Origin: a virus
Length of the DNA stretch: 13,110 bases
Direction: 5' to 3' (one strand)
Virus genome (UHGV): UHGV-0162637
Position numbers and translations under genes: made by a program
Part shown: positions 3,173 to 13,060 of the stretch, in pieces
How the letters are laid out: each line of letters starts with the position of its first letter
Position numbering within the stretch: the first letter of the stretch is position 1
The notes under the pieces: model-generated
Databases searched by the model: none
What the model saw: only the letters and a program-made list of their open reading frames with translations
Told to the model about the DNA's origin: nothing

Positions 3173-3343
3173 TCACGATCTCCCTTCTGGCGATACATTA
3201 ACGCCTGCTGAGTGTACATGCGTCTCTGTAACTTGCTCTCCTTCACTGTGGTTGAAAGTGACATGAATATCTCCTTCGTTACCGATTAAATCTTTCATCT
3301 GACGAATGAATTCTTCGTCTGACCAGTTATCTGTAAAACTCAT
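3173..3343 (-). CDS. small phage protein (56 aa) at the Kil/Arf position between cIII and erf
   Basis: ATG at 3343 overlaps the stop of the CIII-like gene (ATGA), as lambda kil overlaps cIII. Identity as Kil or Arf is positional only. Confidence 0.45.
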   Translation of the reverse strand: MSFTDNWSDEEFIRQMKDLIGNEGDIHVTFNHSEGEQVTETHVHSAGVNVSPEGRS

Positions 3344-3510
3344 GGACGGCCTTGTTGTTTCAAAATATCCCAAAGCTTTTCGAGCAAACTTTTCATTCTT
3401 GGTTGTTTAAAGTCTGCTCCGGTTAGAATGTTTTTTCGTGAATGCTGTACCGATAAAATCGGGTTGAAAGGGCGAACCGATGCCGCCCCTGCAATAGCGA
3501 ACTGTTGCAT
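3340..3510 (-). CDS. cIII: CIII-like protein (inhibitor of FtsH-mediated CII degradation), 56 aa
   Basis: ATG at 3510 with GGAG 7 nt upstream. N-terminus MQQFAIAG and the segment SLLEKLWDILKQQGRP resemble lambda CIII (MQYAIAGW..., ...RLIDILNQPGVP, recalled). The track ORF extension upstream runs through a terminator hairpin and is not coding. Confidence 0.65.
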   Translation of the reverse strand: MQQFAIAGAASVRPFNPILSVQHSRKNILTGADFKQPRMKSLLEKLWDILKQQGRP

Positions 3511-3574
3511 AGGATGCTCCTTCTGTTTGATTGCATAACGAAAACGCCTCGAGTGAAGCGTTATTGGTATGCAT

Positions 3575-3600
3575 ATAAAAAGACCCTCACATTGGAGGGC
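3575..3600 (-). terminator. putative intrinsic terminator downstream of the membrane-protein gene
   Basis: On the minus strand: 5-bp GC-rich stem (CCCTC/GAGGG, plus one wobble pair), 6-nt loop, followed by CTTTTTATAT. Lies between the membrane-protein gene and the CIII-like start. Confidence 0.45.
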
Positions 3601-3749
3601 AAAGAAGATTTCCAATAATCAGAACAAGTCGGCTCCTGTTTAGTTACGAGCGACATTGCTCCGTGTATTCACTCGTTGGAATGAATACACAGTGCAGTGT
3701 TTATTCTGTTGTTTATGCCAAAAATAAAGGACGATTATGCGGCCTGAAA

Positions 3750-4199
3750 TTACTTAACCAATGATGCTGCATATTCGATAAGGTAAAGTTTTGGGGCCAG
3801 CCAAATTTTTAACCAAGTCATATTGGTTACTACACCAATAATAAAAATCCCCCACAGAGTCAAAACTCCAACCAATGGCATGATAAGAAGATTAATATCA
3901 CCTTTGCTATCCCAAACCATTGTCGGCCTGTATTTGGGATTTCCTTTCTCCCATGAATATCCTTCATCACCGATTTTACCTGTCTCAACTCTTTGGCACT
4001 GCTTCTTCATAAACCAGAAAACCAGTGGGATTGTTAGAATGGCTATTAATGTTTTAATCAGACTGTCAACCATATTCCATAGCAGCAACTGATGAACAAC
4101 ATCAGGAATCTGTGCTTGGCTAAATGAAACAGCCGCGTCTATTCCATTACTGGCTTTTTGCAGTAGTTCTACGAGAATCTTGTTTGCTTGTTCTTCCAT
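3750..4199 (-). CDS. predicted two-TM inner-membrane protein (149 aa), unknown function; candidate moron
   Basis: Intact ORF with two hydrophobic segments (about residues 47-63 and 108-128) and a charged loop between them. Sits in the slot lambda uses for ea10 between ral and cIII, with no obvious SD. Flanked by an identical 14-mer (3717-3730 and 4238-4251) and followed by a terminator. Confidence 0.7.
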   Translation of the reverse strand: MEEQANKILVELLQKASNGIDAAVSFSQAQIPDVVHQLLLWNMVDSLIKTLIAILTIPLVFWFMKKQCQRVETGKIGDEGYSWEKGNPKYRPTMVWDSKGDINLLIMPLVGVLTLWGIFIIGVVTNMTWLKIWLAPKLYLIEYAASLVK

Positions 4200-4257
4200 A
4201 TATCACATTGATTGTAATAAGCATGAAATTATTTACGGCCAAAAATAAAGGCCACCA

Positions 4258-4458
4258 TCAGGCAGCCTTGTTGTTCTGTTTACCAAATTCTCTGGCAATC
4301 ATTGCCGTCGTTCGTATTGCCCATTTATCGACATATTTCCCATCCTCCATTACAGGAAACATTTCTTCAGGCTTAACCATGCATTCCGATTGCAGCTTGC
4401 ATTCATTGCATCGCTTGAATTGTCCACACCATTGATTCTTATCAATAGTCGTAGTCAT
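4258..4458 (-). CDS. ral: Ral restriction-alleviation protein (66 aa)
   Basis: 66-aa product MTTTIDKNQWCGQFKRCNECKLQSEC... matches my recollection of lambda Ral in length and sequence; position between the N-like gene/sieB and cIII is the same as in lambda. Confidence 0.7.
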   Translation of the reverse strand: MTTTIDKNQWCGQFKRCNECKLQSECMVKPEEMFPVMEDGKYVDKWAIRTTAMIAREFGKQNNKAA

Positions 4459-4528
4459 ACGGATAGTCCTGGTATTGTTCCATCACATCCTGAGGATGCT
4501 CTTCGAACTCTTCAAATTCTTCTTCCAT
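4442..4528 (-). CDS. orf28-like acidic peptide (28 aa: MEEEFEEFEEHPQDVMEQYQDYPYDYDY)
   Basis: 87-nt ORF whose 3' end overlaps the ral start by 17 nt, the same arrangement I recall for the 87-nt ORF upstream of ral in lambda. Below the size cut-off of the ORF track; translation done by hand. Confidence 0.35.
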   Translation of the reverse strand: MEEEFEEFEEHPQDVMEQYQDYPYDYDY

Positions 4529-4671
4529 ATATCACCTTAAATAGTGGATTGCGGTAGTAAAGATTGTGCCTGTCTTTTAACCACATCAGGCTCGGTGGTT
4601 CTCGTGTACCCCTACAGCGAGAAATCGGATAAACTCTATTCACCCCTACAGAGAGCAAAAGAGAAACGCAG

Positions 4672-5253
4672 ATGAACAACTCATGGTGGCAGGAACTAAT
4701 GCATTTTTTCCTGCAAGGAATGACACTTAAACAGTTGATTCATATGCTAATCATCCTGATCATATTGATTATTGTTATGCCGGTAAGCGTAAAAGAATGG
4801 ATAAACCTGCATAATCCAGAAATCCTTCCTCATTATTGGATGTATTACATCCTGTTGTTCTGCGTTAGCTATGTGCTTAACGGTGTTGTTAATTCCGCTT
4901 ATCACGCTGTGACTGAAAGAATTGAGGTATCCGCTGCTCAGAAGCGCAAATCTAAAGAAGAAAAATATGTGCAAGATTTGTTTGATTCGTTAACTCTTGG
5001 AGAAAGAGCGTATTTGGCATTCGCTGTAGCCGCGAATAACCAGCTAAAGACAGAAAAGGGAAGCCATGAAGCAATCTCATTGCTCGAAAAAGGGCTTCTT
5101 ATTCGGATACCTTCTGCTACTGGATATCCTGAAATCGACCGTTTTGTTATCCCTGAACGCTATAGAAATGAGTGCTACATTAGGTTTGCTGGGAAGAAAG
5201 ACAGCCTTATGGATGAACTTATCGCTCAGGATAAGCATGGCAAAAACAAGTAA
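4672..5253 (+). CDS. sieB: SieB-like superinfection exclusion protein B (193 aa), membrane anchored
   Basis: Only plus-strand gene inside the leftward operon, between ral/orf28 and the N-like gene as sieB is in lambda and P22 (recalled). N-terminal hydrophobic segments then a charged C-terminal domain. AT-rich. Family assignment is from position, size and topology, not alignment. Confidence 0.65.
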   Translation: MNNSWWQELMHFFLQGMTLKQLIHMLIILIILIIVMPVSVKEWINLHNPEILPHYWMYYILLFCVSYVLNGVVNSAYHAVTERIEVSAAQKRKSKEEKYVQDLFDSLTLGERAYLAFAVAANNQLKTEKGSHEAISLLEKGLLIRIPSATGYPEIDRFVIPERYRNECYIRFAGKKDSLMDELIAQDKHGKNK

Positions 5254-5269
5254 TTAGCAAATGAATTTA

Positions 5270-5542
5270 TCATCTCGCCGTCAGTTGTTTTGATTTCCGG
5301 TAGCCTGCCGAGTAAATGGCTACGTTTGGCAGGCAAATACTTCCACTGCATTCTTCTGCCTTCTTGCAGCGAAGGCTTCCGAGTGATGCTGCTTTGTCTG
5401 CTCTGACGCAACCAGAGAGCTTTAACGCAATTTTTCGCGCCAGTGCTTCATTACTGCGTCGCTCGGCAATAAGTTCTGCTCTGCGAGCTTTGTAGCGGCT
5501 TTTTGCCGTACCTTTGGATTCTTTCCAGACAATGGTTACCAT
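5270..5542 (-). CDS. N: N-like transcription antitermination protein (P22 gp24 family), 90 aa
   Basis: ATG at 5542 with AAGGAG 7 nt upstream. Arginine-rich N-terminal motif (GTAKSRYKARRAELIAERR) and C-terminus ...YSAGYRKSKQLTAR resemble P22 gp24 (recalled). First gene downstream of the PL/nutL region. Confidence 0.75.
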   Translation of the reverse strand: MVTIVWKESKGTAKSRYKARRAELIAERRSNEALARKIALKLSGCVRADKAASLGSLRCKKAEECSGSICLPNVAIYSAGYRKSKQLTAR

Positions 5543-5652
5543 GATGGTCTCCTTTAAGTGGCTTTGGCGCATGACGCGTCGAGGTGCTTATCTTCTCGAT
5601 CGCTGTCTTGCAGCTGCAATTCGCGCCATCCCCAAAACCACTCAAGTTCTGG

Positions 5653-5729: not shown

Positions 5730-5810
5730 GATGGCTTAAATTTAAGACTTCTTAATTTGTTGGTCAAGTGTATTTTTGAAGAAAACTTAATTTTATGGGC
5801 GTGAATTTAG
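5730..5810 (-). promoter_or_regulatory. OL/PL region: leftward early promoter with P22-type operator
   Basis: Minus strand has -35 TTGACC (plus 5762-5767), a 17-nt spacer and -10 TAAATT (plus 5739-5744). The palindromic operator AATTTAAGACTTCTTAATTT (5738-5757) carries the TTAAG/CTTAA half-sites of P22 C2 operators and overlaps the promoter. Confidence 0.5.
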
Positions 5811-5832: not shown

Positions 5833-5857
5833 AAATAAAAAAGGGGCGAAAGCCCCT
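5833..5857 (-). terminator. intrinsic terminator immediately after the repressor gene
   Basis: Minus strand: TAA stop, then GGGGC-TTTC-GCCCC hairpin followed by TTTTTTATTT. Classic rho-independent terminator. Confidence 0.75.
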
Positions 5858-6507
5858 TAAGGAAGGTTTGCTAGCTTGGCATCAACGACAACGCCAATGA
5901 TTTTACAGTTCCCATTGATTTCAATCATTGGGTATTGTGGATTGAGTGGTTTCAGGAATTTTCTACCGGCATCAATAACTAACTTTTTGAATGTCGCCTC
6001 GTTTTCTCCTTCAAGTTTGGCGACTACCAGCTTTCCATTACGTGGTTCGACTTCTGGGTCGACGAGAATAATCATCCCCTCAGGAATACTCAGTCCTGCC
6101 GGGGCAGTCATTGAATCGCCTTTAACGTCGAGCCAAAAAGAGTCTTCAGAACAATCTACCGTTGTGTCGTACCAGTTATCTATTGCACGCCTATGATATG
6201 GCTCTACAGCTTCCATCCAACATCCTGCGCTTACCCAACTAATTAGAGGATACGAACCTCTTGGATCATGCCTGCTGTGATAGGCAATGTTTGAAAGACT
6301 ATCCTCTCCTTTCAACAGGTAATCAGGGGAGCACTGCAAAGCCTTGGCTAAGGCCAATAGGTTTTCGCCATTGGGCTCAGTTTCAGATCGCTCCCATTGG
6401 GAAATAGCAACATTAGACACGCCAACCATCTTTCCAAGGGCAGCCTGCCTAATCTTGAGTTCTTTTCTGCGAGCGCGAATACGCTCACCCATCAGTTGTG
6501 TATTCAT
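5857..6507 (-). CDS. c2: C2/CI-type prophage repressor (HTH plus S24 LexA-like autopeptidase domain), P22 C2 family
   Basis: 216-aa product MNTQLMGERIRARRKELKIRQAALGKMVGVSNVAISQWERSE...GVVVDAKLANLP matches my recollection of P22 C2 nearly throughout. Divergent from cro across an operator region. Confidence 0.9.
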   Translation of the reverse strand: MNTQLMGERIRARRKELKIRQAALGKMVGVSNVAISQWERSETEPNGENLLALAKALQCSPDYLLKGEDSLSNIAYHSRHDPRGSYPLISWVSAGCWMEAVEPYHRRAIDNWYDTTVDCSEDSFWLDVKGDSMTAPAGLSIPEGMIILVDPEVEPRNGKLVVAKLEGENEATFKKLVIDAGRKFLKPLNPQYPMIEINGNCKIIGVVVDAKLANLP

Positions 6508-7379: not shown

Positions 7380-8256
7380 GTTAGCTGATTACAGGCATAA
7401 CCCTGTACAACATCAGGAGGCATCCAGTATGGGGTATGTCTCTATACACCGCCAGTTTATGGACAGCAGGCTCTATAAGGACTCTCAGGCAGTACATCTT
7501 TGGCTTCACTTAATCCTCAAGGCTAATCACGAATCTACTGTCGTCAATACGGATATCGGTCCGATAACTGTTGATCGCGGTCAGATGATAACTGGACGCC
7601 CGTCGCTGGTCAGAGAAACATTCATTCCAGACAACAAAGTTCGGAGCTTATTACGGACTTTTGAGTCGAAAGGGATGCTTAATATTTGCTCGATGGGGAA
7701 GAAATTTAGCCTGTTTACAATTGTTAAATATGACGATTTTCAGGCAAAAAATTGTCCAACGGTTGTCCAACGATTGTCCAACGCAACCCCCAGTAATGGC
7801 GCGGCTCTCAGCGGAGATTGTCCAACGGTTGTCCAACGATTGTCCATAAACAATAATATAAATAATATCTCTAATACTGACGTATTAGAGAGTACCGCAG
7901 CAGACAAAAAGTCTGACAAGAAAAAACCTTCCGTTAGCTGTCAGGATGTTGTCGATGCTTACCACGAAATCCTTCCTGAAGCGCCAAGAATCCGCGCACT
8001 GAATGACAAGCGTAAAAACCAGATCCGAACGTTCTGGCGCAAAGCCGGAGTAATAACACGTCAACTTGACGGGCATGGGTTCACGATGCAGGACTGGAGA
8101 AATTATTTGAGCTACGTTGGCGAAAATTGCCGATGGATGTTCGAAGAGCGCCCAAACCATCAACGCGGAACCGTCTGGCACAAAAAGGGATTTGATTTCC
8201 TGCTTAACGATAATACCTACCTGAAAGTTCGTGAGGGTGAACACGATGACCGATAA
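7366..8256 (+). CDS. O: replication initiator protein (lambda O-like), origin iterons embedded in the gene
   Basis: Position after cII; the iteron cluster in mid-gene is translated as the repeat CPTVVQRLSN. AGGAG SD before ATG 7366; an alternative in-frame ATG at 7429 has an AGGAGG SD, so the true start may be 7429. Confidence 0.8.
   Translation: MGVVKLADYRHNPVQHQEASSMGYVSIHRQFMDSRLYKDSQAVHLWLHLILKANHESTVVNTDIGPITVDRGQMITGRPSLVRETFIPDNKVRSLLRTFESKGMLNICSMGKKFSLFTIVKYDDFQAKNCPTVVQRLSNATPSNGAALSGDCPTVVQRLSINNNINNISNTDVLESTAADKKSDKKKPSVSCQDVVDAYHEILPEAPRIRALNDKRKNQIRTFWRKAGVITRQLDGHGFTMQDWRNYLSYVGENCRWMFEERPNHQRGTVWHKKGFDFLLNDNTYLKVREGEHDDR
7753..7880. repeat. lambdoid replication origin: six iterons plus AT-rich region
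   Basis: TTGTCCAACG at 7753, 7764 and 7775, then again at 7818 and 7829, with a variant TTGTCCATAA at 7840 (11-bp periodicity, two clusters 33 bp apart), followed by an AT-rich stretch 7850-7880. Same architecture as lambda ori inside O. Confidence 0.8.
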
Positions 8257-8788
8257 TTTTTATGCGCCGCCCCATAGCATCGAGGCAGAGCAGGCGGTGA
8301 TTGGTGGATTGCTTCTGGATGATGACAGCAGTGAGCGCGTCCAGAAAGTTCTGGCGATGCTGAAGCCTGATTCATTTTACAGCCGACCACACAAAATCCT
8401 TTTCGAAGAAATAACCAGAATGCACCGGGAGCAAAAGCCAGTAGATGGCCTGACGCTTTTCGATGAACTGGAGCGTAAATCGTTAACGGTGTCTGTTGGC
8501 GGTTTTGCTTATATCGCTGAGATCGCAAAGAACACGCCAAGCGCAGCAAACATCGTTGCCTATGCAATGCAGGTTCGTGAAACCGCAATGGAACGCTACG
8601 CCATCAACCGCATGACTGAAGCGACGGAATTGCTCTATCTCACAGTAAAAGCCGCCGGTGTGTGGGCGGGTGGCATTGAAACACCTTCGGTGGAAACTCC
8701 ATCGGAAGGTTCAAAATTTTTTGGTTTTGATATGGATAACGAATTCATCAGTGGTTTTGATGTAGGAGCATGGGGAAAATTACTCTGA
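8246..8788 (+). CDS. DnaB-family replicative helicase, N-terminal domain only (truncated, likely non-functional fragment)
   Basis: ATG 8246 with GAGGG SD, overlapping the O stop. Residues PPHSIEAEQAVIGGLLLD...SVGGFAYIAEIAKNTPSAANIVAYA align with the E. coli DnaB N-terminal domain (recalled). Similarity ends after about 140 aa and the ORF stops at 181 aa; the RecA-like ATPase domain is absent. Confidence 0.7.
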   Translation: MTDNFYAPPHSIEAEQAVIGGLLLDDDSSERVQKVLAMLKPDSFYSRPHKILFEEITRMHREQKPVDGLTLFDELERKSLTVSVGGFAYIAEIAKNTPSAANIVAYAMQVRETAMERYAINRMTEATELLYLTVKAAGVWAGGIETPSVETPSEGSKFFGFDMDNEFISGFDVGAWGKLL

Positions 8789-9690
8789 TGGCTAAAAATG
8801 AATTTAAACCATTTGCAACTGGCTCTGGTGCTAACGTAACAACTCAGACAGACTGGGAATCATTACCTGTCCTATCTGCTGGCTTTACATCGGGGAAGGC
8901 ATCAAGTGCTCAGGTGAACAAAGGTCTGAGGCAAGGAACGGCAATGGCGGCTGCTGTGGGGCAGTTTATCGCAGATAATACCAGTGAGGATGTGAAAGAT
9001 AATGGTGATATTGCGGGGCTCTCTGCGCAATTAGCGAGTGCGGTAGAGCAGGCTGCAACAGGACGGCTTATTGGTGTTCGCACAATAACGACATCCGGGA
9101 CTTATACGCCAACCCCAGGAACGAAAAGCATTATTGTTGAAGTCCAAGGCGCAGGCGGAGGAGGGGGCGGGGTTGGTACAACTAACTCTACCAGTGTTGC
9201 AGTTGGGTGTGGAGGGGGAGGTGGCGCCTACGCTAAATCCCGTATCACCAATTTAGACTCAGCATATACTGTAACCATTGGAGCTGGTGGAGCTGGTGGG
9301 GTTAACGGTAATGGAGGAAACGGTGGTGGATCTTCTTTCGGATCTATAACCGCTGGCGGTGGATTTGGTGGTGGTTCAGGAAATGGGGTACCTCCTATTA
9401 TTCAGAACTCACCAGGAATTCCTATAGCATCCGGAGGTAATATTTTAAATCTCTCTGGAGAGAATCCAACTATTGGCATGGCTATATCGACTAGCTCTAT
9501 CATCTCTGGTGGCGGAGGTAATAGTCCATTAGGTGTGGGTGGTAATCCACACGGCTCAGCGGGTATCGGTGTATTGCCGACTGGTTTCGGGGCTGGGGGC
9601 GGTGGGGCTAACGCATATGTGAATAATGCCACCCAATATAACGGAGCCGCCGGTGGTAATGGTATTGTTCTTATCTGGGAGTATGCATGA
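8788..9690 (+). CDS. glycine-rich protein (about 300 aa), possibly phage tail-fibre-like; function unknown
   Basis: Long intact ORF; ATG 8788 overlaps the stop of the helicase fragment (TGATG), with an alternative in-frame ATG at 8770. Non-glycine-rich N-terminal region of about 130 aa, then poly-Gly and GxGG tracts to the C-terminus ...GIVLIWEYA. Family assignment is tentative. Confidence 0.65.
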   Translation: MAKNEFKPFATGSGANVTTQTDWESLPVLSAGFTSGKASSAQVNKGLRQGTAMAAAVGQFIADNTSEDVKDNGDIAGLSAQLASAVEQAATGRLIGVRTITTSGTYTPTPGTKSIIVEVQGAGGGGGGVGTTNSTSVAVGCGGGGGAYAKSRITNLDSAYTVTIGAGGAGGVNGNGGNGGGSSFGSITAGGGFGGGSGNGVPPIIQNSPGIPIASGGNILNLSGENPTIGMAISTSSIISGGGGNSPLGVGGNPHGSAGIGVLPTGFGAGGGGANAYVNNATQYNGAAGGNGIVLIWEYA

Positions 9691-9866
9691 TGAAATATGC
9701 ATTGGTAGAAAATGATGTTGTGATTAACGTTATATTATGGAACGGCGATGGAAAACAATACGATGATTATCTCTGTATAAAGCTTGACGACAATAGCGTT
9801 GTTGGTGTTGGGTATACATATTCAGAGGGTAGGTTTTTGCCCCCTGAATATATTGATGAATTATAG
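9687..9866 (+). CDS. hypothetical small protein (59 aa) coupled to the glycine-rich gene
   Basis: ATG overlaps the stop of the glycine-rich ORF (ATGATGA); product MMKYALVENDVVINVILWNGDGKQYDDYLCIKLDDNSVVGVGYTYSEGRFLPPEYIDEL. Its 3' end overlaps the convergent acyltransferase stop by 6 nt. Below the ORF-track size cut-off. Confidence 0.35.
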   Translation: MMKYALVENDVVINVILWNGDGKQYDDYLCIKLDDNSVVGVGYTYSEGRFLPPEYIDEL

Positions 9867-10955
9867 TGGTGAAATATTTTTACTCATTATTAGTCTCCCT
9901 GTTCTTATAAATTTCTTTTCTACATATCTATATGATAAATCAGAAAAGACAACTAGCAAAAGAATGAAAGCGAAGAAGTATATAACTTTGTTTTCGTAAA
10001 TGACGGTGTTAAGGGAGAGTTTGTTCAAAACCTCCCTTGTTACATGTAGTAATGGTAAATGGCAAAGATAAATGCTATAAGATCTATCCCCAATCCAGTC
10101 CAGCATTTTATATGCTGGATTATCTTTTTTATCTACCACACCACCACTAATAAAACATAGAAATAATAATGCACCAGCAAAACCAATCGCAGGTAATGTC
10201 AATCTATAGTTAAAGTGCTGAGGGGCAACGAGTAAAACAAAAATGCAAACTATAATAAAAAATAGTCTTGTGCATTTATTGCTTACATAACACTTGCTTC
10301 CAGTTATGAATATAATTGCTCCCAGAAAGAATGCTTGTGGTCTAATCCACCAACCAATGGATTGATAGTACATTTGAGTTACTGGCAGGAAAGATGCAAT
10401 AGCTACTATGAATATGAAAATAATCGTCAGATTTTTCCTGTTAAAGAGCAGCATGATTGCCGCAATTATAGCATACAGTTGCCATTCCAAAGATAGAGAC
10501 CAGGTCACCGCATTCATTTGGTCACAATCATTTGCTGTTACTGCGCACCTATAGAAGTGGATATTAGAATAACCAAGTAGGGATGTATATAACGTAGTGA
10601 ATGATTTAAGAGGTGAAACACCCCAAGAAGGTTGCATAAAATAAGAGATTATTATACAGATGGTGCCCCATACAAGTAAGCATGGGGCTAGCCTAAATAT
10701 TCTTTTAGATAAAAATAATAAAAATATTTTAGTTGTTCTGCCGGTTTTTTTTATTTCCCCAGTTAAGCTTTTAGCCATCAAATATCCAGATATAGCCAAA
10801 AATATATCAACTCCAGCCCAATAATTAACGTAATTAAAACTGCTCAAATACCAATCTGGCGAAGGTAATCTATTTCTATAATGTTGTAGAATAACCATTA
10901 TTATGGCTACCGCCCTTAGCGCTTGAATGTCAAGGTTTTTATTATTTAGGGTCAT
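9861..10955 (-). CDS. acyltransferase family 3 integral membrane protein (O-antigen acetylase-like, Oac/OafA type)
   Basis: 364-aa polytopic membrane protein with the conserved N-terminal motif LDIQALRAVAIIMVILQHY and many hydrophobic segments. Visibly AT-rich compared with flanking DNA. Lies at the prophage/host boundary where P22- and Sf6-like phages carry O-antigen modification genes (recalled). Confidence 0.85.
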   Translation of the reverse strand: MTLNNKNLDIQALRAVAIIMVILQHYRNRLPSPDWYLSSFNYVNYWAGVDIFLAISGYLMAKSLTGEIKKTGRTTKIFLLFLSKRIFRLAPCLLVWGTICIIISYFMQPSWGVSPLKSFTTLYTSLLGYSNIHFYRCAVTANDCDQMNAVTWSLSLEWQLYAIIAAIMLLFNRKNLTIIFIFIVAIASFLPVTQMYYQSIGWWIRPQAFFLGAIIFITGSKCYVSNKCTRLFFIIVCIFVLLVAPQHFNYRLTLPAIGFAGALLFLCFISGGVVDKKDNPAYKMLDWIGDRSYSIYLCHLPLLHVTREVLNKLSLNTVIYENKVIYFFAFILLLVVFSDLSYRYVEKKFIRTGRLIMSKNISPL

Positions 10956-11887: not shown

Positions 11888-13060
11888 TTGCTGTTGAAAC
11901 GCCGTCTTATTATTGCTGCTTCTTTGTTCGTTTTTAACTTATCGTCTGGTTTTGCGGCGGAAAACATTCCTTTTTCACCTCAGCCTCCAGAGATTCATGC
12001 CGGGTCCTGGGTATTGATGGATTACACCACCGGTCAGATCCTCACCGCGGTTAATGAGCATCAACAGCGCAATCCCGCCAGCCTGACAAAGCTGATGACG
12101 GGTTATGTCGTGGATCGCGCTATCGATAGTCATCGCATTACGCCAGACGATATTGTCACCGTGGGGCGCGATGCGTGGGCGAAAGATAATCCGGTGTTTG
12201 TCGGTTCTTCACTGATGTTTTTGAAAGAGGGCGATCGCGTATCGGTACGTGATTTAAGCCGTGGTTTAATTGTGGATTCTGGAAATGACGCTTGTGTTGC
12301 TCTGGCTGACTATATTGCCGGTGGGCAACGGCAGTTTGTTGAAATGATGAACAACTATGCCGAGAAGCTGCATCTCAAGGATACGCATTTTGAAACAGTG
12401 CATGGTCTGGATGCACCTGGCCAGCATAGCTCGGCTTATGATTTAGCTGTGCTTTCTCGCGCTATCATCCACGGCGAGCCCGAGTTTTATCATATGTACA
12501 GTGAGAAAAGTCTCACCTGGAACGGTATCACCCAGCAAAACCGTAACGGGTTGTTGTGGGATAAAACCATGAATGTTGACGGCCTGAAAACGGGTCATAC
12601 TTCTGGTGCCGGGTTTAATCTCATTGCTTCGGCTGTAGATGGGCAGCGTCGTCTCATTGCAGTGGTAATGGGGGCTGACAGTGCAAAAGGTCGTGAGGAA
12701 GAGGCAAGAAAATTACTGCGTTGGGGGCAACAAAACTTTACTACGGTGCAAATTTTGCACCGTGGGAAAAAGGTCGGAACGGAACGCATCTGGTATGGCG
12801 ATAAAGAAAATATCGACCTGGGAACGGAACAAGAGTTCTGGATGGTGCTACCGAAAGCCGAAATTCCACATATCAAAGCCAAATATACCCTTGATGGTAA
12901 AGAGCTCACCGCGCCAATTAGCGCCCATCAGCGGGTAGGGGAAATTGAACTTTACGACCGTGATAAACAGGTGGCGCACTGGCCGCTGGTTACCCTGGAA
13001 TCTGTCGGGGAAGGCGGCATGTTTTCCCGCCTGAGTGATTATTTCCACCATAAGGCCTGA
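11888..13060 (+). CDS. dacD: D-alanyl-D-alanine carboxypeptidase DacD (penicillin-binding protein 6b)
   Basis: 390-aa product with signal peptide and the SxxK (ASLTK), SGN and KTG motifs of class-C low-molecular-weight PBPs; matches E. coli DacD as recalled. The start is a TTG at 11888, so the exact start is uncertain. Confidence 0.9.
   Translation: MLLKRRLIIAASLFVFNLSSGFAAENIPFSPQPPEIHAGSWVLMDYTTGQILTAVNEHQQRNPASLTKLMTGYVVDRAIDSHRITPDDIVTVGRDAWAKDNPVFVGSSLMFLKEGDRVSVRDLSRGLIVDSGNDACVALADYIAGGQRQFVEMMNNYAEKLHLKDTHFETVHGLDAPGQHSSAYDLAVLSRAIIHGEPEFYHMYSEKSLTWNGITQQNRNGLLWDKTMNVDGLKTGHTSGAGFNLIASAVDGQRRLIAVVMGADSAKGREEEARKLLRWGQQNFTTVQILHRGKKVGTERIWYGDKENIDLGTEQEFWMVLPKAEIPHIKAKYTLDGKELTAPISAHQRVGEIELYDRDKQVAHWPLVTLESVGEGGMFSRLSDYFHHKA

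Follow-up and report, generated by a model that had tools for sequence, protein, structure and literature searches.

The term moron is used here in the sense of the comparison of phages HK97 and HK022 by Juhala and colleagues in 2000. For the early operons of lambdoid phages, the established model of gene exchange is one in which short conserved boundary sequences target the exchanges (summarised in PMC3233612). Most genes of the early-left operon are without known function according to the genome paper of phage L (PMC8022706). The subject of this report is a gene of this region, which encodes a protein of 149 amino acids (aa) and lies at positions 3750-4199, on the minus strand, of UHGV virus genome UHGV-0162637; the whole stretch of 13,110 nucleotides (nt) that was analysed is referred to as the window. 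An earlier note on this DNA had taken the gene for a self-contained moron with a possible function in phage defence. Its observations are partly confirmed here, and its interpretation is partly supported. Comparison with relatives shows the gene as a discrete module, without promoter or terminator, that is moved by recombination at short conserved ends, and on sequence grounds it is a member of a known protein family, PHROG 3054, that already includes gp34 of phage Sf6. The account favoured here, held with about even confidence, is that of a promoterless accessory module of the early-left (PL) operon, most likely with a membrane function in the lytic cycle. The locus serves mainly as a correction: its gene appears to ride in the early-left operon of a lambdoid phage as an ordinary passenger, and not to be an autonomous defence moron.

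The gene occupies the slot between ral, its upstream neighbour (4258-4458, minus strand; Pfam Ral, E 2e-46), and cIII, its downstream neighbour (3340-3510, minus strand; PHROG 550 (CIII), E 1e-22), as had been noted from the letters alone, and its open reading frame (ORF), as given in the ORF list, is intact. The two hydrophobic helices described at that time were also recovered, with hydropathy placing the segments at approximately residues 43-64 and 102-125. A gap of 58 nt separates the stop codon of ral from the ATG of the gene, and the two are therefore not translationally coupled, in agreement with the first reading.

The evidence for a module comes from the comparison of phages that carry the gene with phages that lack it. 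In lambda and HK140, BLAST alignment shows the end of ral running straight into a conserved segment that contains the terminator tL2a, with a single copy of a 14-nt sequence (GCCAAAAATAAAGG) at the joint and no 149-aa gene. In the window this 14-mer occurs exactly twice, at 3717-3730 and 4238-4251, just as the earlier note had stated; the chance expectation is 0.01, and two copies were found in none of 200 shuffles. The difference between the window and lambda or HK140 amounts to 521 base pairs (bp) and is bounded exactly by this repeat. A comparison of the ral-cIII interval across relatives had been proposed as a check, and it finds the gene absent exactly between the repeats in both phages, with one copy kept. 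A 931-bp query was matched in 2,273 of 5,426 complete Escherichia coli genomes, only 52 of which cover at least 80% of it (ral and the allele on the tL2a backbone), and several evenly sampled matches have ral joined directly to the tL2a segment. The protein itself is found at 99-100% identity in many other prophages, and empty, single and tandem states of the locus all occur in nature.

The ends of the module were defined further in a survey of 80 IMG/VR loci with the same allele (74-100% protein identity), in which the 14-mers were counted in the 74 loci with enough flank and the leaders were typed in 75. The downstream copy (3717-3730, minus strand) lies 19 nt past the stop codon, is present in 63 of the 74 loci and travels with the gene; no hairpin precedes its T-tract (-2.9 kcal/mol, z 0.2). 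The upstream copy (4238-4251, minus strand; CCTTTATTTTTGGC on the coding strand) consists of the last 4 nt of the stem and the U-tract of a terminator-like hairpin in which the stop codon of ral is partly included (4248-4269, minus strand; -13.9 kcal/mol, z -3.2). This ral-end hairpin is kept behind ral and, in phage Gally, also behind a gene that is not ral. The upstream copy is present in 25 of the 74 loci, in 22 of these behind ral or another gene ending in a ral-type hairpin, and both copies are exact in two loci (2/74). The 14-mer thus stands on both sides of the gene because the 3' end of the module came to lie behind ral, and the terminator-like end of ral has this T-tract too. The proposal that the two 14-mers mark the edges of an inserted cassette accordingly holds in that the difference from lambda and HK140 is bounded by the repeat, but the upstream copy is the U-tract of the ral hairpin and occurs in a minority of loci.

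At the 5' side, the boundary of the module is formed by the Shine-Dalgarno (SD) region and the first codons, ATG GAA GAA (AATGTGATATATGGAAGAACAA; 4188-4209, minus strand), as delimited by BLAST self-similarity, the joints in SPN9CC and Oslo, and the leader survey. A second copy of this sequence lies at the start of orf28, upstream of ral (4517-4538, minus strand; sequence comparison), and SPN9CC and Oslo, which are without orf28 and ral, have their joint exactly at this second repeat of the SD region and first codons. The orf28 homologue itself (MEEEFEEFEEHPQDVMEQYQDYPYDYDY; 4442-4528, minus strand), recognised from its sequence and the lambda annotation, overlaps the start of ral and encodes a very acidic protein of 28 aa; a repeat of the ribosome-binding site and first codons of orf28 is found where the 149-aa gene begins. 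The module comprises a ribosome-binding leader of about 20 nt, the ORF, 19 nt of spacer and the T-rich 14-mer, and recombination at short junction sequences that are conserved moves it from phage to phage. Some 20 nt separate the downstream 14-mer from the bsq4 segment of the Sf6 annotation, and the repeats of the window could have acted as recombination targets in the manner of the boundary-sequence model.

Beyond the downstream 14-mer lies a conserved backbone segment (3573-3716, minus strand), identified by BLAST, the Sf6 annotation and folding, which is largely the 'bsq4' of Sf6 and the lambda spacer between ral and ea10. Taken with the 14-mer (3573-3730), it shares 96% identity with the stretch of lambda that separates ral from ea10, with ea10 beyond. 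The terminator that had been attributed to the gene (stem 3583-3600, T-run 3575-3582, minus strand) belongs to this segment. The hairpin and its T-run are present, as the folds confirm, but the terminator is not the cassette's own, because it is the homologue of the tL2A annotated in the Sf6 record and is kept in lambda and HK140, where the gene is missing. The tL2a segment begins 34-37 nt past the stop codon in most loci, and another gene intervenes in others.

The slot had also been equated with that of ea10 in lambda, an assignment that fails: ea10 lies beyond tL2a, and a 122-aa Ea10 is encoded beyond the tL2a segment in 24 related loci that carry the 149-aa gene, so that the two genes occupy different slots. 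A second terminator-like hairpin, detected by scan and fold just upstream of cIII (3543-3562, minus strand), is at what we take to be the position of lambda tL2b. In the window, the tL2a-like and tL2b-like hairpins stand back to back (3543-3603) because the ea10 slot between them is empty; in relatives this slot is filled by ea10 (about 400 nt) or by other genes. Within the 158-bp segment conserved with lambda, which overlaps Sf6 bsq4, folding also revealed a perfect hairpin with a 14-bp stem (about 3643-3674, minus strand). A 201-nt stretch here folds better than shuffled sequences (z -3.4), and an Rfam scan of 3200-4800 returned nothing meaningful and no match for this hairpin.

The gene has no conserved promoter or terminator of its own. 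The weak promoter suggested for it, TTGGCC-17-TATTAC, matches 8 of 12 consensus positions, is without the final T of the -10 element (at -7) and was not called by the promoter scan; promoter-like sites are no more frequent in the region than in shuffles. The suggestion is further undermined by the leaders of the 75 related loci, which fall into at least four unrelated sequence types. The leader type that contains the proposed -10 is found in only about 28 of them, and all leaders have in common only the 20 nt or so before the ATG, that is, the SD region (CCACTTATTT-GAGGTGATAT).

These observations bear directly on the reading of the gene as an autonomous moron, equipped with its own promoter and terminator, expressed in the repressed prophage and acting by SieB- or RexB-like exclusion or abortive infection, which we consider improbable. 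Such a reading draws on the small size and membrane nature of the protein and the position of its gene next to sieB and ral, in an accessory region that is hypervariable, on the presence of the gene in some close relatives and its absence from others, on the very weak -35/-10 pair at 4214-4242, and on a homologue that lies inside the structural gene cluster of a P. tolaasii prophage, a classic position for a moron. What survives of it is the discrete unit that is gained and lost, whereas a promoter conserved with the gene, a terminator other than the backbone tL2a and a distinct composition are all missing: the GC fraction is 0.38-0.41 across the 149-aa gene, ral and sieB and does not contrast with the flanks. 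Furthermore, the gene runs with PL, with sieB on the other strand; virulent phages, in which there is no lysogen that could be protected, commonly carry the family; and similarity to PADLOC families, SieB, SieA or Imm was not detected.

The window covers the early region of a lambdoid prophage of the P22/HK type that adjoins the host gene dacD, and the first gene of the operon that holds the 149-aa gene is an N-type antiterminator gene (5270-5572, minus strand), an ORF at the position where N is annotated in relatives. A PL-like promoter, TTGACC-17-TAAATT (5739-5767, minus strand), was called by the promoter scan and overlaps two P22-type operators (TTAAGNNNNCTTAA; 5742-5755 and 5777-5790, minus strand); promoter and operators together span 5739-5790, and OL/PL is intact. 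A boxA-like sequence, GCTCTTTAACA, lies about 50 nt downstream of PL and its operators on the minus strand. The 149-aa gene is co-oriented with N, ral and cIII and is situated downstream of OL/PL, nutL and N, while sieB (4672-5253) is on the strand opposite to the gene and the PL operon. The gene for a C2-type repressor (5857-6507, minus strand; ORF list) is also intact, and the strong terminator-like hairpin that the scan placed directly 3' of it (5841-5858, minus strand) would halt PRM transcripts short of the PL operon. Judging from this layout, transcription of the 149-aa gene would occur only when PL fires and N permits read-through of the ral-end hairpin, and the protein would be made after infection or induction and remain silent in a repressed lysogen.

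Several further features of the region were recorded. To the left of cIII lie an Erf-type recombination gene and, further on, ea-type genes. In related IMG/VR loci (L021 and similar), an N-type ORF matches the N of the window over its first 73 or so residues and then diverges; it ends just within the ral region, about 235 nt or more upstream of the 149-aa gene, which suggests a deletion or mosaic joint that removed the C-terminus of N together with sieB.

The protein belongs to a large family. Its match to phrog_3054 has an E value of 3.7e-64 and aligns residues 1-149 with profile positions 1-137 of 137, and the same family contains Sf6 gp34 (gene 34), SPN9CC_0015, Oslo gp47 and Gally gene 30. 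A profile search returned 5,301 clusters (50% identity) at E <= 1e-3 and 2,454 at E <= 1e-10; the 150 best listed clusters have proteins of 121-180 aa matched over nearly their full length. By tblastn, family members were found in 178 phage records, including those of Sf6 (gene 34), CUS-3, HK633 and SPN9CC. Virulent phages are represented by N4-like Schitoviridae and phi92-like Justusliebigvirus, in which the gene is located among small early or accessory genes, and homologues occur in a similar setting in Vibrio and Pseudomonas phages. The listed homologues carry only database names such as 'hypothetical protein', 'Uncharacterised protein', 'TMhelix containing protein' or 'Gene 34 protein', and the NqrD label (JGI) on one of them was set aside as apparently spurious. 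A search of the literature on the family, PHROG 3054 and Sf6 gene 34 found no functional study, and the deletions that evolved in the Sf6 paper are in the nin region, not at this locus.

A profile and structure homology search, proposed earlier as a check, thus yielded the phrog_3054 family but no named function. The 149-aa protein has no match in Pfam (E <= 1), NCBIfam or PADLOC-DB v2 (0 families at E <= 10); when 128 family members were scanned against Pfam, the hits were scattered chance matches to transmembrane (TM) segments, none of them consistent; and a profile search of Protein Data Bank (PDB) sequences gave only chance hits to G-protein-coupled receptors, at E 0.35. With a low-confidence model, Foldseek found nothing in the PDB (0 hits), and its BFVD hits were all uncharacterised proteins, headed by a sequence homologue from phage Bjorn.

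The family is built in an unusual way, with conserved ends and a variable core. The N-terminal 41 or so residues (residues 1-41; ..GID..F..E.PDV.HQLLxW) and the C-terminal 22 or so (residues 128-149; WLxIWxAPKxxLxEYAxxLxK) are conserved across all hosts, from enterobacterial phages to those of Vibrio and Pseudomonas, whereas residues 42-127, the TM1-loop-TM2 core, vary in sequence and length. In an alignment of 128 sequences, P32, I132, P136, K137, E142 and Y143 are invariant. Compared with Sf6 gp34 and the SPN9CC protein, 39-40 of 41 N-terminal and 19-21 of 22 C-terminal residues are identical, against 15-18 of 86 in the core, and the 5' 123 nt show 92-97% DNA identity to the Sf6 and SPN9CC genes. 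Such near-identical 5' DNA next to a divergent core indicates that the core has been exchanged by recombination rather than by slow divergence. The N-terminal segment is acidic and helical and the C-terminal segment is amphipathic; these conserved ends are probably the working part of the protein. The product is accordingly described as a predicted inner-membrane helical hairpin of the Sf6 gp34 / PHROG 3054 family, and with two membrane spans both conserved ends would be on the same side of the membrane. The genes downstream of homologues vary (an AAA ATPase in one case, a YadA-like or a pentapeptide protein in others, elsewhere nothing that could be recognised), so that the gene stands alone; a two-gene system was considered and dropped, as no conserved partner gene is found next to the homologues.

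The presence of homologues in strictly virulent phages speaks for a lytic-cycle role, not one specific to the lysogen, and an N-dependent early membrane function in lytic growth is the most likely one that the sequence suggests, with the protein acting, as we suppose, at the cytoplasmic membrane. The best single guess is a block to the entry of a second phage's DNA, similar to that of Imm or SieA, or another manipulation of the envelope; it is offered tentatively and is more probably wrong than right. A close rival of this guess is an early counter-defence or host-takeover membrane protein that disarms a membrane-based defence of the host or a prophage or remodels the envelope, a possibility that we regard as doubtful but tenable, and a defence moron expressed by the prophage is unlikely. 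Counter-defence would suit the neighbours of the gene within the accessory part of the PL operon (ral and, in related phages, abc-type genes), its occurrence in virulent phages, and its hypervariable core between conserved ends, a pattern of the sort seen in arms-race proteins. It would also suit the neighbours of distant homologues that lie outside early operons in other prophages: in P. tolaasii (L016, 5001-5971) the homologue lies within the head-tail gene cluster and adjoins a sialyltransferase-like PHROG, and in Vibrio casei (L017, 5001-5892) it adjoins a PagP-like PHROG (lipid A acylation) ahead of the terminase, which hints at an envelope-related accessory island. Against it, the family has no homology to any known anti-defence protein, and its association with ral is inconstant.

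The screen of Silas et al. provides the one experimental trace of a homologue. In this work, 200 accessory genes were synthesised and screened in ECOR strains, among them UDP0047 (10.1101/2023.04.06.535777), which is the SPN9CC homologue AEW47744.1 (orf47, 121 aa, two TM segments by TMHMM; 10.1101/2023.04.06.535777, Supplementary File 3). Its selection as an accessory gene worth testing is compatible with counter-defence, but orf47 does not appear among the reported counter-defence genes, and the texts of the preprint and of the follow-up paper make no mention of it (10.1101/2023.04.06.535777; PMC12373910). According to its authors, the screen is unreliable in detecting protective, exclusion-type genes (10.1101/2023.04.06.535777; PMC12373910). 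Another gene of the same study, orf184, comes from the same accessory region as ral and triggers the gop-beta-cII abortive system (10.1101/2023.04.06.535777); it is probably distinct from the 149-aa protein, as its model file has a size that would fit a smaller one.

Small phage proteins with two TM segments also include lysis-timing proteins, and a holin, antiholin or pinholin-like protein displaced from the lysis cassette was weighed, though we judge it very improbable. The homologue in Vibrio casei, which is located between the late-regulator region and the terminase, a frequent site of lysis genes, gave rise to this idea, which was rejected once its neighbours had been identified as a dGTPase, the PagP-like PHROG and the small terminase, with no endolysin or spanin. 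The early-left position of the gene in lambdoid phages and an amphipathic C-terminus that is unlike the charged tail of holins also disfavour it, and holin Pfam matches are not consistent in the family (1/128 members, E 0.02).

Several points weigh against the favoured account of a PL-operon module with a lytic membrane function. AlphaFold2 models were of low confidence with alignments of both 47 and 128 sequences, with a predicted local distance difference test (pLDDT) score of 62.9 and 66.6, respectively, and a predicted template modelling (pTM) score of 0.40. The topology is ambiguous as well, since K/R density is highest in the loop while the N-terminus is acidic, and a positive-inside test of 355 members fits either orientation. 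No similarity of the family to Imm, SieA or SieB was found, nor any link to a blockade of DNA entry. In the screen described above, the genes that reportedly trigger cell death or sensitise the host do not include orf47 (10.1101/2023.04.06.535777). The expression model is derived from gene layout, and some expression in the lysogen could come from a weak promoter or from transcripts that enter from another site. Finally, the SD sequence of the window copy (4200-4212), AATGTGA, carries a weakening G-to-T change that is seen in none of the 75 surveyed loci, where most leaders have A/GAGGTGA and one group has AAGGGGA.

This last change raises the question of whether the gene is a silent passenger in this particular prophage, an intact ORF with a weakened SD and no present role in the host, which we think improbable. 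The prophage is defective, with everything between the N-terminal domain of a DnaB-like helicase and a tail-fibre-like gene apparently deleted, and together with the weakened SD this implies that the window copy may be poorly expressed. The intact repressor gene and OL/PL were likewise counted in favour of silence. The ORF, however, is intact, its protein is almost identical to that of many other prophages, and the proposal concerns the window copy only, not the function of the family. The ORF of the helicase (8231-8788) encodes the N-terminal domain only; a glycine-rich, tail-fibre-like ORF (8770-9690) follows directly, and then a 59-aa ORF. An Acyl_transf_3 gene (9861-10955, minus strand) may encode an O-antigen acetylase, and host dacD lies at 11888-13060. 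The window as a whole is absent from every complete E. coli genome searched, the best match covering 45% of it.

The locus is a clean example of the shuffling of promoterless modules in the PL operon, with one repeat at the ribosome-binding site and one at the T-tract. Interest in the locus itself is modest, and it is higher for PHROG 3054 as a whole, one of the larger unnamed families of phage membrane proteins (about 5,300 clusters at 50% identity, no Pfam entry), which is found in both virulent and temperate phages and has an unusual layout of conserved ends and a swapped core; a function, once assigned, would annotate thousands of phage genes. Three natural alleles of 149, 140 and 121 aa are at hand for chimera comparisons. 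A broader and speculative proposal, to which we give a low probability, is that the family forms a widespread class of early inner-membrane effectors of temperate and virulent phages, in which the ends would be a working or assembly module, the exchangeable TM-loop-TM core would set specificity (such as the choice of incoming phages to be shut out, or of the membrane-based host defence to be neutralised), and the promoterless cassette would spread by recombination at its conserved SD and T-tract ends.

Several known systems were compared with the 149-aa protein. T4 Imm is likewise a small inner-membrane protein with two TM segments made early by a lytic phage, and it blocks DNA entry by later phages. 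It has 83 aa, however, and is without the conserved N- and C-terminal extramembrane segments of the 149-aa family; the Imm family (PF14373) gave no Pfam hit, and the hhalign probability was 0.2%. P22 SieA sits in the inner membrane, is made by a lambdoid or P22-like phage and prevents the injection of DNA. Three TM helices are predicted for SieA, as opposed to two here, and the P22 record annotates a promoter of its own and a location outside the PL operon; BLASTP gave E 0.033 over 38 residues and hhalign a probability of 1.2%. SieB (PF14163) gave no Pfam hit at E <= 1 and an hhalign probability of 0.1% against the SieB of the window itself. For holins, there is a single match among the 128 family members (E 0.02), and the 149-aa gene is in the early-left operon, not in a lysis cassette.

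In genome organisation, as with morons, an extra gene is found between genes that are adjacent in related phages (lambda and HK140), but it brings neither a promoter nor a terminator, does not stand out in composition, and depends on the surrounding operon. Lambda ea10 is similarly a non-essential gene of the PL operon between ral and cIII; its protein is unrelated, and it is in a different slot, between tL2a and the pre-cIII hairpin. The boundary sequences bsq1-4 of Sf6 are likewise short conserved intergenic stretches that flank variable genes at mosaic joints, although neither the 14-mer nor the SD-region repeat carries this annotation itself. Sf6 gp34 shares several features with the 149-aa protein: the two belong to one family by a full-length hidden Markov model match, both genes stand after ral and before the tL2a/bsq4 segment, and 40 of 41 N-terminal and 19 of 22 C-terminal residues are identical. 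Sf6 gp34 (140 aa) and the SPN9CC protein (121 aa) differ from the 149-aa protein in carrying another core allele, with a core identity of 17-21%, between ends that have remained nearly the same.

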